DNA of 64,000 bases, from contig CAWFCQ010000006.1 of the NCBI GenBank assembly GCA_963814375.1, positions 32,001 to 96,000 of the forward strand, written 5' to 3'. Source of the stretch: an uncultured Chloroflexia bacterium (GTDB taxonomy: Bacteria; Chloroflexota; Limnocylindria; QHBO01). A model generated the notes under the pieces. That model was given only the letters and a program-made list of their open reading frames with translations. It was not told the origin of the DNA and did no database searches. Shown here piece after piece: positions 1 through 17,390 of this stretch; the stretch's first letter is position 1; each line of letters starts with the position of its first letter. The position numbers and the translations under genes are program-made.

Positions 1-1168
1 CAAGTTCGGCGACGGCCGGATGAAGGCGAACCTCGATATCGAGCTCGTCGTCGACCTGTTCCGCCTGGCCGACCGAATGGACATCGCCGTCATCGTGTCG
101 GGCGACGGCGACTTCGCGCCGGCCATCCGCGCCCTCCAGGACAAGGGGGTGCGCGCCGAGGTGATCAGCTTCAAGCCGAACACCTCGTCCGACCTCATCG
201 CGGTCGCCGACGACTTCATGGACATCATGAAGGTCGCCTCGATCAGCCGGAAGGAGGGACGCGCCGTGCGTGACAGCATGAGCGCGCCCGAGATGCCGGC
301 CAAGGAGGTCACTCCCGAGTTCGGGTTCCGTGAGGCGTCGCCCTCCGTGGCAGCGGCCGCACTGGCCGCGATCAAGGGTGGCGGACCCGCGGCACCCGCC
401 GCGCGTCGTGGACGCGGGACGGGTCGGGCGACCACGGGCCGCACCGCTGCACCGAAGTCGGAAGAGGCGCCGGCCGAGCCGGCCGCCGCCGTCGCTGTCA
501 CCGAGACGACCGTGGAGGGCGGCGAGGAAGCCCGGCGCCGCCGCCGTCGCCGCGGTGGCAGAGGGCGCGGGCGCTCGCGCCGCGAGGACGAGTCGACGAC
601 TGCACCCATCACCACCGGCGACGAGGAGATCGGCTGGGAGGAGTTCGACGACCTCAGCCAGCTCGATGGTGCCGAAAGCGCTCCCGAGGGGGAGCGCGAG
701 TACGGCTTCGAAGAGGCCGATGCCGCCACCCTCGCCGAGCTCGGCATCAGCCCTGACGACGCTGCCGCCGAACCAGCCGCAGCGGAAGAGAAGCCAAAGC
801 GATCTCGGTCGCCTCGCGCACGTAAGCCGGATGCCTCATCCGCGCCCGCCACCGAAGGCGAGGCCGATGCCGATGCGGACGCCAAGCCGGCCCGACGCTC
901 GCGCGCGAAGAAGGCGTCGTCGGCCGACACCTCGGACGAGAAGGCGAAGCCAGCTCGAACGCGGTCGACGCGCAGTGGATCGAAGGCAGCAGCCGGAGAC
1001 GGCGCGGCCGTCGAGCCGAAGTCGAAGAAGGCGACGACCCCCTCGGCCACCGAGAGCCCTGCTGGCGATGTTGCCGCGAACGAGACCGCAACGGTCCCGC
1101 CCGGCGAGCCGCAGGGTATCTGGGGCCGGTTCCGCTCCGCTCGCAAGCCACGAGGGACCACGGCCTGA
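1..1168 (+). CDS. NYN (LabA/DUF88) domain protein with long disordered C-terminal tail, 5'-truncated by window edge
   Basis: K-x-N-L-D...IVSGDGDF..L...G..V.V motif typical of NYN; Arg-rich and acidic low-complexity tail. Confidence 0.85.
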   Translation, partial: KFGDGRMKANLDIELVVDLFRLADRMDIAVIVSGDGDFAPAIRALQDKGVRAEVISFKPNTSSDLIAVADDFMDIMKVASISRKEGRAVRDSMSAPEMPAKEVTPEFGFREASPSVAAAALAAIKGGGPAAPAARRGRGTGRATTGRTAAPKSEEAPAEPAAAVAVTETTVEGGEEARRRRRRRGGRGRGRSRREDESTTAPITTGDEEIGWEEFDDLSQLDGAESAPEGEREYGFEEADAATLAELGISPDDAAAEPAAAEEKPKRSRSPRARKPDASSAPATEGEADADADAKPARRSRAKKASSADTSDEKAKPARTRSTRSGSKAAAGDGAAVEPKSKKATTPSATESPAGDVAANETATVPPGEPQGIWGRFRSARKPRGTTA

Positions 1169-10168: not shown

Positions 10169-10244
10169 TGGCGCGCCCGACAGGATTCGAACCTGCGACC
10201 TTCGGCTCCGGAGGCCGACGCTCTATCCACTGAGCTACAGGCGC
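10169..10244 (-). tRNA. tRNA-Arg (CCG)
   Basis: GCGCCTGTAGCTCAGTGGATAGAGC-GTCGGC-CTCCGGA-GCCGA...GGTTCGAATCC...GCGCGCCA cloverleaf with encoded CCA. Confidence 0.97.
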
Positions 10245-12050: not shown

Positions 12051-12494
12051 CTAGCTGGCCGCCCCCGCGGCGACCAGGTAGCCCTCGGTGACCTCGTCCT
12101 TGTGGGCGGCGAAGGCAGCGAGGACCTCGCCCTTCTCCGTCTCGGGCACGCCGACGGTGTCCAGCGTTCGGCCGAGCTCGGCCGCGACCTCGTCGAACTC
12201 GTCGGGTGAGATCTTCAGCTGCCGATGCGCCTCCTCGAGGCCAAGGGCCGTGCTGCCCGGGCGCACCGCGGTGTACTGGAAGGGGCCGCCGGCGACGTTG
12301 CACACCCACAGCGTGCGCATGAACTTCAGGCCCGGCAGGCGGTCGAGGCTGTTCGTATGCCACTCGCGCAGCGCGGGATTCTCCGACTGCTGCCCCACGA
12401 TCGGGTTCTTGATCAGCGCATCGCTGAAGTGATCGACGACGGCGGCGATCGAGAAGGCTCCGCCGAGTCGGTCATAGAGGGTTGGGTCGCCCAT
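12051..12494 (-). CDS. Group I truncated hemoglobin
   Basis: TLYDRLGG..IAAVVD.F, GGP..Y, EAH..L.I...FD; GAGGAG RBS. Confidence 0.88.
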   Translation of the reverse strand: MGDPTLYDRLGGAFSIAAVVDHFSDALIKNPIVGQQSENPALREWHTNSLDRLPGLKFMRTLWVCNVAGGPFQYTAVRPGSTALGLEEAHRQLKISPDEFDEVAAELGRTLDTVGVPETEKGEVLAAFAAHKDEVTEGYLVAAGAAS

Positions 12495-12533
12495 GGTCGT
12501 GCACTCCTCGCGCTCTATCGCTAGTCAGCGCTA

Positions 12534-12563
12534 GTGCTACACCCGCCGGGAGGCGCGTGTCAA
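12534..12563 (-). promoter_or_regulatory. Putative sigma70 promoter of the globin gene
   Basis: TTGACA-18nt-TAGCAC on minus strand. Confidence 0.5.
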
Positions 12564-12589
12564 GAGGGCGAGCGCCCGACGGCTCCGGG

Positions 12590-12738
12590 AAAGACGAAGG
12601 CCCCCGCCGAAGCGGGGGCCTTCATTGCTGCCGGATTCGCTAATTGCAAGGGCATCTTTCACGCACGGTTACCCGTACTACCCTAACCCTAACCTACCCA
12701 TGGCCTTGCAACCAGTAGTGAATCGCTGTGCGAACAGC
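12590..12738 (-). ncRNA. Candidate structured small RNA with telomere-like G-rich loop
   Basis: Own promoter, 5' hairpin, long closing stem, GUAA-tetraloop hairpin, UUCG terminator; no credible ORF. Confidence 0.7.
12596..12623 (-). terminator. Intrinsic terminator
   Basis: GAAGGCCCCCGC-TTCG-GCGGGGGCCTTC followed by GTCTTT. Confidence 0.85.
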
Positions 12739-12744
12739 ACCGTC

Positions 12745-12773
12745 AGAATAGACCACCTGTTCCCTTTGGACAA
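12745..12773 (-). promoter_or_regulatory. sigma70-type promoter of the candidate ncRNA
   Basis: TTGTCC-17nt-TATTCT in an AT-rich patch. Confidence 0.7.
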
Positions 12774-12852
12774 GGGTTTCGGAGGTTTAGATTCCTTTAC
12801 ATTGCAAAGCGGTATGGCCGGCCGACCGGTGGGAACGGCCGATGCGCCACGC

Positions 12853-13518
12853 TCAGCCCGACGGTGTCGGAGCGCTGTCCGCGCTGATCACGATTGACAG
12901 AATCGTCACCGTCTCGAGCGGGACACCGATGCGCGGGTCGTTCACCGGCACCTCGGCGATCGCGTCGACGACATCCGTCCCGGCGACGACCCTGCCGAAG
13001 ATCGTGTAGCTGCCGACCGCGCGCAGCTGGTCGTCGAGATCGGCGAGGGTGATGAAGAACTGGCTGCCGTTGGCAACGGTGTCGTTGGCCATCGCGACCG
13101 TGTACTTGTCGAATGCCAGGTCGTCCGACGGTGGCTCGATCTCGAAGTCGTAGCCAGGCCCACCCGTGCCGAGGCCCTCGAAGTCACCGGTTTGCGTCCT
13201 CGTCTGCGGGTCGCCTGCCTGGATCACGAATTCGGCGAGCACGCGGTGGAACCAGATCCCGTCATAGAAGCCGCAGCGTGCCAGCGAGACGAAGTTCGCG
13301 GTAGCGATGGGGGCCGCCTCCCCGTACAGCTCGATGTCGAACGAGCCGCCGACTCCGCCCTCGACCGTGACCGTGGCGAGCGTGGCGTCCTCCAGGGTGG
13401 CTTGGGCGCCATTGCGCGTGGGCGCTTCGGATGGGCACGGGATCGGCGACGCCGCCGGCGTTGCCTGGCAGGCGGACAGCGCGATGAGGCAGACCAGAAA
13501 GCCGACGAGCGCCCTCAT
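12853..13518 (-). CDS. Cyclophilin-type peptidylprolyl isomerase (lipoprotein)
   Basis: LSAC lipobox; NFV.LAR.GFYDG..FHRV...FVIQ.GDP, NGSQFFI, YTIFG. Confidence 0.92.
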   Translation of the reverse strand: MRALVGFLVCLIALSACQATPAASPIPCPSEAPTRNGAQATLEDATLATVTVEGGVGGSFDIELYGEAAPIATANFVSLARCGFYDGIWFHRVLAEFVIQAGDPQTRTQTGDFEGLGTGGPGYDFEIEPPSDDLAFDKYTVAMANDTVANGSQFFITLADLDDQLRAVGSYTIFGRVVAGTDVVDAIAEVPVNDPRIGVPLETVTILSIVISADSAPTPSG

Positions 13519-17313: not shown

Positions 17314-17390
17314 GGGCCCGTGGTGTAGTGGCCCAACATGCCAGCCTGTCACGCTGGAGATCGCCGGTTCGAATCCGGTCGGGCCCGCCA
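17314..17390 (+). tRNA. tRNA-Asp (GTC)
   Basis: GGGCCCG...CCAGC-CTGTCAC-GCTGG...GGTTCGAATCC...CGGGCCCGCCA; TGCTATGCT extended -10 at 17285-17293. Confidence 0.97.

Follow-up and report, generated by a model that had tools for sequence, protein, structure and literature searches.

A probable new family of structured small RNAs with an invariant G-tract internal loop in Limnocylindria

The DNA considered here is a stretch of 64,000 nucleotides (nt) from an uncultured Chloroflexia bacterium of the class Limnocylindria (assembly GCA_963814375.1, contig CAWFCQ010000006.1, positions 32,001 to 96,000 of the forward strand), to which, in its full length, we refer as the window. On its minus strand, between a cyclophilin gene and a globin-like gene, lies a gene of about 150 nt (12738-12590, both transcript ends being deduced from the sequence), which very probably specifies a noncoding RNA of a previously undescribed family, a lineage-specific, orphan structured small RNA (sRNA) with an unusual internal loop. 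Limnocylindria are widespread, abundant and uncultured Chloroflexota of soil and fresh water. An initial annotation, made from the letters of the window alone, had placed here an AT-rich island bearing a promoter, a 5' hairpin, a long interrupted stem around a G-rich loop, an inner hairpin and a terminator. The region is indeed an A+T-richer island, with a GC content of 0.49-0.60 against about 0.65-0.74 in its surroundings, and all of these sequence features are present on the minus strand (Table 1). As befits a standalone sRNA, the element has a promoter and a terminator of its own, is conserved independently of its flanks and folds into a covarying structure.

Table 1. Positions in the window of the parts of the RNA gene and of the neighbouring genes
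Feature	Position	Strand	Basis
Predicted small RNA, inferred start to end of terminator tail	12590..12738	-	sequence; near-invariant in genus, both flanks diverging
-35-like hexamer TTGTCC	12768..12773	-	sequence and family-wide promoter pattern
-10-like hexamer TATTCT, 17-nt spacer from -35	12745..12750	-	sequence and family-wide pattern
P1, 5' hairpin GCUGU-UCGC-ACAGC	12725..12738	-	compensatory changes
P2 outer, 5' strand GAUUC (partner 12634-12638)	12720..12724	-	pairs in window sequence
P2 outer, 3' strand GAAUC	12634..12638	-	sequence and fold scoring
P2 inner, 5' strand CUGGUUGCAAGGCCAU (partner 12640-12655)	12700..12715	-	RNAalifold and pairing counts
P2 inner, 3' strand AUGCCCUUGCAAUUAG	12640..12655	-	RNAalifold and pairing counts
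G-tract strand of internal loop, 21 nt, GGGUAGGUUAGGGUUAGGGUA	12679..12699	-	tract pattern in 95/96 model-positive genomes
P3, inner hairpin GUACGG-GUAA-CCGUGC	12663..12678	-	pairing, and compensatory changes on alignment A2
3' strand of internal loop, 7 nt, GUGAAAG (GUGAUAG in most members)	12656..12662	-	142/142 members
Conserved unpaired stretch before terminator, CCGGCAGCAAUG (ACCGGGACAGCA in other families)	12622..12633	-	
Intrinsic terminator, 12-bp stem GAAGGCCCCCGC-UUCG-GCGGGGGCCUUC	12596..12623	-	terminator scan
Conserved upstream stretch GCTTTGCAATGTAAAGGAATCTAAAC, includes imperfect palindrome	12783..12810	-	flank alignment
Cyclophilin-type peptidyl-prolyl isomerase gene, directly upstream of the RNA	12853..13518	-	Pfam PF00160, E = 4.5e-36
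Globin-like gene	12051-12494		PF01152

When a near-full query of 226 nt was used in BLAST searches, the element was recovered at 89-95% identity in 19 of 24 genomes of the same genus; two of the remaining genomes held pieces cut by contig ends, and three gave terminator-like matches only. Seven genomes from two further families contain the central 65 nt with 78-85% identity. Alignment of the flanks within the genus revealed a nearly invariant promoter region and RNA, followed after the terminator by sequences unrelated between the members. A scan of one genome per species for the pattern of the G-rich strand yielded at least 120 stretches, and among the matches listed nearly all records were titled Chloroflexi, Chloroflexota, Limnocylindria or Limnocylindrales. 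A covariance model of the RNA (R2), which matches the window at 12630-12744 with 89.3 bits, matched 96 of the 151 class genomes, each of them exactly once (47/50 in family f1, 42/44 in f3, 6/6 in f4, 0/49 in f2 and 0/1 in f5), and 84 of the 110 that are at least 90% complete. When four f2 genomes and the f5 genome were searched permissively, the best E was 0.84, and the DNA following the cyclophilin genes of these two families held no comparable element at the syntenic place. No convincing match was obtained among about 135 other Chloroflexota in a phylum sample of 151 genomes; the single match outside the class (genome G292, 26.6 bits) is false, lying antisense inside an open reading frame of 516 amino acids and lacking the motif. 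Viral contigs gave no matches, and the search for a second copy in the window's own genome returned only short chance or terminator-like similarities. The family is vertically inherited, with a single copy per genome, in three families of Limnocylindria. The tallies from BLAST, from R2 and from the loop pattern include three unpublished genomes (G006, G145 and G119, the first of which also supplied one row, L016, of alignment A1 described below); no conclusion depends on them.

The RNA measures about 150 nt in the window's type and about 190 nt in the other families. The f4 family has small genomes (1.0-1.4 Mb), and its loci (L035, L052, L104, L125 and L153) show the shortest linker in the loop (GGUGGG), a differing P3 (UCGC-UAUAG-GCGA) and a 3' part without GGGACAG; they probably have no P1 either, because TTGGAA-17-TATTCT occupies the place that P1 takes in other families. 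Separately, five records titled Steroidobacteraceae, Polarisedimenticolia, Sulfomarinibacteraceae or Anaerolineaceae (L062, L064, L067, L087 and L074) carry typical members, L062 and L064 sharing the type of the window. Mis-binning of Limnocylindria DNA is the probable explanation of these contigs.

Pairing was evaluated on two alignments, a structure-blind MAFFT alignment of 133 distinct sequences (A1) and a model-fitted alignment of 100 of them (A2), which leans towards the model. The R2 model comprises 28 pairs in the helices P1, P2 (outer and inner parts) and P3. On A1, 90.7% of the cells pair, compared with 29.9-46.6% in controls with the 3' partners displaced by one to three columns, and compensatory changes occur in 15 of the 28 pairs; the covariation score of 0.265 was equalled in none of 500 shuffles, and the slid arrangements reached at most 0.063. 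The respective values on A2 are 93.0% of cells, 18 of 28 pairs and a score of 0.350. Conservation of the stems in relatives, proposed with the initial annotation as a check, is therefore accompanied by covariation on either alignment. RNAalifold applied to A1 recovered the P2 helix with 15 pairs, nine of which have compensatory changes, and 95.2% of the cells of inner P2 are paired in that alignment. For P1, compensatory changes were found in four of the five pairs on A1 and in all five on A2. The outcome for P3 differs between the alignments: on A1, where MAFFT misaligns the two types, two of its five pairs are compensatory, and on A2 all cells pair (100%) and four of the five pairs are compensatory.

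The outer part of P2 requires a separate comment. Its three pairs show no covariation within a type, and their support consists of the difference between types only, GAUUC/GAAUC in the window's type and CUG/CAG in the others. In the long interrupted stem proposed earlier, one register has to be corrected: the suggested pairing of CUA with UAG finds no support in relatives, as same-genus variants (CCA, UUA, GAA and CAA) lack compensation. The conserved register is instead C12715-G12640 and U12714-A12641, which alternates between CG (90 sequences) and UA (33), a change that may represent a single event.

Taken singly, the window's sequence folds better than its shuffled versions (z = -4.09, none of 200 shuffles as good). 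The conserved fold has an energy of -64.5 kcal/mol (-66.0 when constrained) and lies above the minimum of -70.0; therefore, the minimum-energy fold of the single sequence, to which the z value refers, is not the conserved fold. A mutual-information scan for long-range or tertiary partners of the variable loop positions returned only known pairs and lineage-linked columns. In types other than the window's (for example at L028 and L057), P2 carries GCUGCCC on its 5' side, and this segment could pair with GGCAG, its P2 partner, or, with a bulged A, with the invariant downstream GGGACAGC; read from the sequences, this double complementarity hints that the RNA may adopt a second conformation. For the 3' CAGCA of the window's type, UGCUG of P1 is a possible partner, and the two are paired in the minimum-energy fold.

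The internal loop lies between P2 and P3. Its G-rich strand, 21-23 nt long across the members, reads GGG-UA-GG-U(N0-2)-GGG-U-N-A-GGG-UAG, with four tracts of 3, 2, 3 and 3 Gs. This exact tract pattern is kept in 95 of the 96 model-positive genomes, the exception concerning a linker base only (GGGUAGG to GGGAAGG), and in all 28 BLAST-found loci that reach the core, so that the conservation of the G-rich loop, likewise proposed as a check, is borne out. The linkers are more tolerant: among 142 members, the second is UA in 56, UU in 32, UUA in 20, UC in 15, UUU in 13, U in 4 and UAA in 2, and the third is UCA in 65, UUA in 64 and UAA in 13. The short opposite strand has the form G-N-G-A-W-A-G in each of the 142 distinct full-length members (GTGATAG in 91, GTGAAAG in 34, GCGATAG in 11 and six others). 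The resemblance to the telomere repeat, for which the loop had first attracted attention, did not survive comparison. The double repeat TTAGGGTTAGGG occurs in only 18 of these 142 members, all of the window's type and confined to part of one genus; most of the window's family has GGTTTGGGTAAGGG instead, and other families have GGT(A/C/T)GGGT(C/T/A)AGGG or GGTGGGTTAGGG. The caveat of the initial annotation that the match might be fortuitous was justified, because with so narrow a distribution the telomere likeness is, on the evidence of these sequences, a coincidence of this genus.

A promoter-like site of the form TTGNNN-16..18-TANNNT occupies the corresponding position in 132 of 155 distinct members, compared with 2 of 155 shuffled controls; it ends 41-51 nt 5' of the G-rich motif in 131 of the 155, and 57 nt from it in one more. 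The hexamer pair proposed for the window, TTGTCC-17-TATTCT, is thus present and conforms to a pattern kept across the family; a simple promoter scan left it out, as it falls below the 9-of-12 rule of that scan. At the other end of the gene, the terminator hairpin is followed by GUCUUU, and a short U-containing tail, GUCUUUCC, occupies 12595-12588. An open reading frame of 31 amino acids at 12678-12773 was considered as a small protein gene and rejected, since it starts upstream of the inferred start of the RNA and since the changes of 1-2 nt in linker length across the members would break the frame.

The upstream stretch that bears the palindrome, a candidate operator, is conserved within the genus in the flank alignment. 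This stretch, about 45-70 nt upstream of the inferred start, holds a conserved A+T-rich motif, a putative UP element or regulator site, which reads GTAAAGGAATCTAAAC in the window and GTTGCGGGATTTTAAC, GTTAAGGAATTTACAT or GTTACGGAATATTAAC in another family (L028-L034); related motifs of the GTTAAGGAATTTTAAC kind occur in other families. Next comes AAACCCTTG, running into the -35 hexamer, with AANCCCTTG in 78 of 155 members. On the plus strand, a terminator-like hairpin followed by TTTAGATT (12763-12785) overlaps the -35 region of the RNA; as no convergent gene has its end at this place, the hairpin has probably arisen by chance from the promoter sequence.

Contigs from four metatranscriptome runs, belonging to four studies, cover the RNA, which is a weak sign that the region is transcribed, perhaps also by read-through. 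In run X1, the cover is limited to 12615-12728, with a word depth of 55-85 in 5 of 30 bins; the fragments there abut library adapter sequence, and their ends are library ends, not RNA ends. Runs X4 and X11 gave single contigs, 12592-12775 and 12592-12813, which reach upstream of the inferred start. Parts left uncovered in these runs are not evidence of absence. All 24 sequencing runs listed in the run search share few words with the query (0.18 at most), so we make no claim as to habitat or strain.

Comparison with known RNAs gave no identity for the element. At gathering thresholds, Rfam 15 reports in the whole window only two tRNAs (10172-10244 and 17314-17387). A permissive scan of 12450-12900, with E up to 10, produced only terminator-level matches, all below the gathering score: RsmY at 21.8 bits (57 required), istR at 20.7 (45) and 6C at 18.8 (47). 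The likeness to RsmY concerns the 3' hairpin of that RNA against our terminator only. The Rfam comparison suggested with the initial annotation therefore ended with no family matched beyond weak terminator similarity. Identity with the signal recognition particle RNA is rejected, as that RNA of this genome sits on another contig. A literature search found no account of a noncoding RNA in Limnocylindria, and the literature listings on 6S RNA in Chloroflexi and on bacterial quadruplex noncoding RNAs held nothing relevant. So far as such listings go, the work on structured RNAs and covariation in Chloroflexi consists of older motif surveys, whose motifs are presumably in Rfam already. In PMC13212565, a word search for noncoding-RNA terms, confined to the article without its supplements, met only remarks on intergenic GC content. 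The high confidence expressed at the outset applies to the statement that this is a real new noncoding RNA family.

As to the role of the RNA, we favour the explanation that the element is a genuine standalone gene whose product is a structured noncoding RNA, representing a new RNA family found in three Limnocylindria families, with an internal loop that is a folded binding site; we assign to this explanation a probability of about 0.5, and the proposal that the loop is such a site, judged separately, likewise stands at roughly even odds. The helices P1-P3 would form a scaffold holding the internal loop in a fixed tertiary fold, and the folded loop, made up of the four-tract strand and the 7-nt strand, would be the working part, offering a specific binding site for a protein or a small ligand. 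The strands of the loop are frozen across three families except for defined linkers, and a folded tertiary motif serving as the functional surface is what such a pattern would lead one to expect. The RNA would then act in trans as a binder or sequesterer, and not by long antisense pairing. Read-through from the cyclophilin gene, the transcript of which seems to use the same terminator, may be an additional source of the RNA. Quadruplexes are classically recognised by invariant G runs whose connecting linkers tolerate changes of length and sequence, and the tracts might form a quadruplex-like core in which a G of the short strand would complete the column of two Gs, giving three layers.

Several points weigh against this explanation. 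Contacts with a protein, or a tertiary motif of another kind, would explain invariant Gs between variable linkers equally well. ViennaRNA run with its quadruplex option predicted no quadruplex, because one tract has two Gs only; in view of that prediction we regard a quadruplex-like core as a tentative and rather unlikely proposal. A still more specific version, in which an intramolecular core of this kind between P2 and P3 would be the functional heart of the RNA, a K+-dependent site for a protein or metabolite, should be viewed as speculative. A1 was gathered by the exact G-tract pattern, so that invariance within it holds by construction, and the independent checks are those on the BLAST loci and on the genomes from the model search. 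The expression data come from assembled contigs only, which do not give strand, ends or level, and the X4 and X11 contigs, extending upstream of the start, make read-through or DNA carry-over possible. The RNA is not indispensable to the class, because it was not detected in f2 and f5 and is missing there at the syntenic place. Finally, the proteins that might have been suspected are ruled out as general partners, which narrows the choice and names no partner or ligand: the search for Hfq (PF17209) gave 0 of 81 class genomes while five controls were positive, that for Ro/TROVE (PF05731) likewise 0 of 81, with controls positive in Deinococcus and Bacteroides, and that for CsrA (PF02599) 3 of 61, all of family f3 and unrelated to the distribution of the RNA.

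Among the other explanations, the one that fares best, although we judge it unlikely, is a regulatory sRNA which acts by base pairing independently of Hfq, with the stretch CCGGCAGCAAUG/ACCGGGACAGCA or the G-rich loop serving as seeds on pyrimidine-rich sites in mRNA. The possession of its own promoter and terminator agrees with this, as does the short unpaired stretch before the terminator, CCGG(GA)CAGCA, which is kept as CCGGCAGCA in 34 of 35 members of the window's type and as GGGACAG in 103 of 107 members of other types. There is also a precedent in Yfr1 of cyanobacteria and 6C of actinobacteria, lineage-wide sRNAs acting via invariant unpaired motifs. When both strands of the window's own genome were scanned for complements, however, no outstanding antisense target emerged: the best non-self score was 40 for the loop, at coding repeats of the CTGGCC type, against 64 for the self match, and 41 against 63 for the 3' stretch, in a scan that is weak, being ungapped and limited to one genome without gene annotation. 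Seeds rarely require 21 invariant nucleotides together with an invariant opposite strand, linkers of variable length between the G tracts are ill-suited to continuous pairing, and Hfq was detected in none of the genomes searched for it.

It could also be supposed that the element belongs to the 3' untranslated region of the cyclophilin mRNA, which it would stabilise, process or terminate, the small RNA being a by-product. In 130-133 of 148 loci from three families, the RNA is immediately preceded, in the same orientation, by a cyclophilin homologue, often by a tandem pair (as judged by tblastn with the neighbours of six reference loci). As the terminator scan found no site in the DNA that separates the cyclophilin stop codon from the RNA, the terminator of the RNA may also end the cyclophilin transcript, and the contigs of runs X4 and X11 run into the intervening DNA, as far as 12775 and 12813. 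We nevertheless consider this explanation improbable. In 132 of 155 members the promoter-like site separates the stop codon from the RNA, the f2 and f5 families keep cyclophilin genes without the element, a plain terminator has no need of an invariant 21-nt loop, and the contig of run X1 covers the RNA part only. As regards the cyclophilin itself, the protein encoded in the window starts with MRALVGFLVCLIALSAC, which resembles a lipoprotein signal with a lipobox cysteine; owing to this signal the protein is probably exported, and would then be an unlikely direct partner of the RNA.

A riboswitch-like aptamer, in which the loop would bind a metabolite or an ion and GCUGCCC would exchange GGCAG for GGGACAGC, controlling termination or activity, is more doubtful again. 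Invariant loop nucleotides between covarying helices, succeeded by a terminator, speak for it, and so does the alternative pairing of two conserved stretches, spotted by eye in the sequences. This pairing is devoid of covariation, though, both partners being invariant, and no riboswitch of Rfam was matched at E up to 10. Moreover, no protein is conserved downstream (17 of 148 loci at most), and the first downstream open reading frame, as called with a crude codon-position filter, lies on the same strand in 68 loci and on the opposite strand in 41, none being called in 16. With no conserved downstream gene and with 41 of the 109 called frames convergent, the RNA is not a leader or riboswitch of a downstream gene. 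The earlier assignment of the element as a standalone gene, and not the leader of the globin gene, is upheld by these counts and by the unrelated sequences that follow the terminator within the genus.

Two further observations concern the DNA downstream. At nine loci, mostly of the window's type (L020, L023, L025, L026, L040, L069, L108, L120 and L182), a frame 100-250 nt past the RNA reads ...RSQVRILSGAP or ...RRFESC..., which we take to be the signature of the T-arm of a tRNA gene; a tRNA gene thus probably follows the RNA at these loci. Short tandem repeats occur about 100-170 nt past the RNA, with the unit GGTGGGACCTGGCGCC in L039 and CGCTCGCTGGCCGCC in L111.

Very unlikely is a 6S-like RNA that would bind RNA polymerase and replace a 6S RNA undetectable in the class. 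Its size and likely abundance would fit, and the Rfam 6S model found nothing in the window's own genome, 89% complete, at E up to 10, nor in any of 61 class genomes (0 of 60 high-quality ones); this model, though, missed 9 of 14 control genomes, so the class-wide absence is weak evidence. The ends of the RNA form no closing stem, the arm beyond the "bubble" is only a hairpin of 5-6 bp, and the f2 family lacks both the RNA and a detectable 6S. The last candidate, a telomerase-like template RNA or another telomere-related molecule, for which the two TTAGGG units in the window and the opposite strand CTAACCCTAAC had been adduced, is refuted by the non-conservation of the repeat, and no reverse transcriptase gene accompanies the element (no genome-wide search was made), its sole conserved neighbour being the cyclophilin gene.

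To return to the favoured explanation of a folded binding site, the set of known RNA regulators and partners is unusually bare throughout the class, with 6S in 0/61, Hfq in 0/81, Ro in 0/81 and CsrA in 3/61 genomes, so whatever this RNA binds is probably a new partner. Should the quadruplex proposal prove true, this would be the first conserved bacterial noncoding RNA family defined by a structural quadruplex, and it would occur in a lineage without detectable Hfq, Ro or 6S and mostly without CsrA. The family would also be the first lineage-specific structured RNA for Limnocylindria. With its conservation pattern, the loop is a clearly delimited candidate for a natural tertiary motif, quadruplex-based or unusual in some other way, and can be studied in vitro with no need of a culture. 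The family and its model would serve annotation even if the function turned out to be ordinary, and they flag mis-binned contigs, as records titled Proteobacteria or Acidobacteriota carry the element.

The closest parallel among known systems may be 6C RNA (RF01066): it too is a standalone gene with both a promoter and a terminator of its own, passed on vertically in one lineage as a single copy, and in it covarying stems likewise surround invariant, compositionally biased unpaired nucleotides. There is no match to it in sequence or structure, the sub-threshold score mentioned above concerning the terminator only, and, in contrast to sRNAs of the 6C type, the loop in Limnocylindria is G-rich instead of C-rich and forms a long asymmetric internal loop, not a hairpin loop. 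Yfr1 and the Chlorobi-1 and Chloroflexi-1 motifs are similar orphan, lineage-specific families of structured sRNAs. With 6S RNA (RF00013) our RNA shares the character of a small, probably abundant standalone molecule with a large internal loop between helices, and it differs in having a separate 5' hairpin and a 3' terminator, no closing stem and an arm of 5-6 bp, and in giving no RF00013 match in the region, in its own genome or in the 61 class genomes. Riboswitch aptamers resemble it in having covarying helices on either side of invariant loop nucleotides, with an intrinsic terminator after them; unlike them, it is not placed upstream of any conserved gene, and the gene downstream is in many cases convergent.

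The idea of a structured RNA displaying repeated short motifs to a protein is familiar from CsrB, RsmY and RsmZ and from Y RNA. The G-rich loop differs from the former in lacking GGA, CsrA is rare in the class and the likeness to RsmY is limited to the terminator; as to Y RNA, its partner Ro/TROVE was found in 0 of the 81 class genomes. A different kind of likeness is offered by Spinach, Mango and Corn, RNA aptamers selected in vitro which have a G-quadruplex at their core. Those molecules are artificial, whereas the quadruplex considered here is hypothetical, with one tract of two Gs and none predicted by the folding model; what the Limnocylindria RNA has in common with them is an internal loop rich in G tracts between two helices, in which the G runs are invariant and the linkers tolerant.

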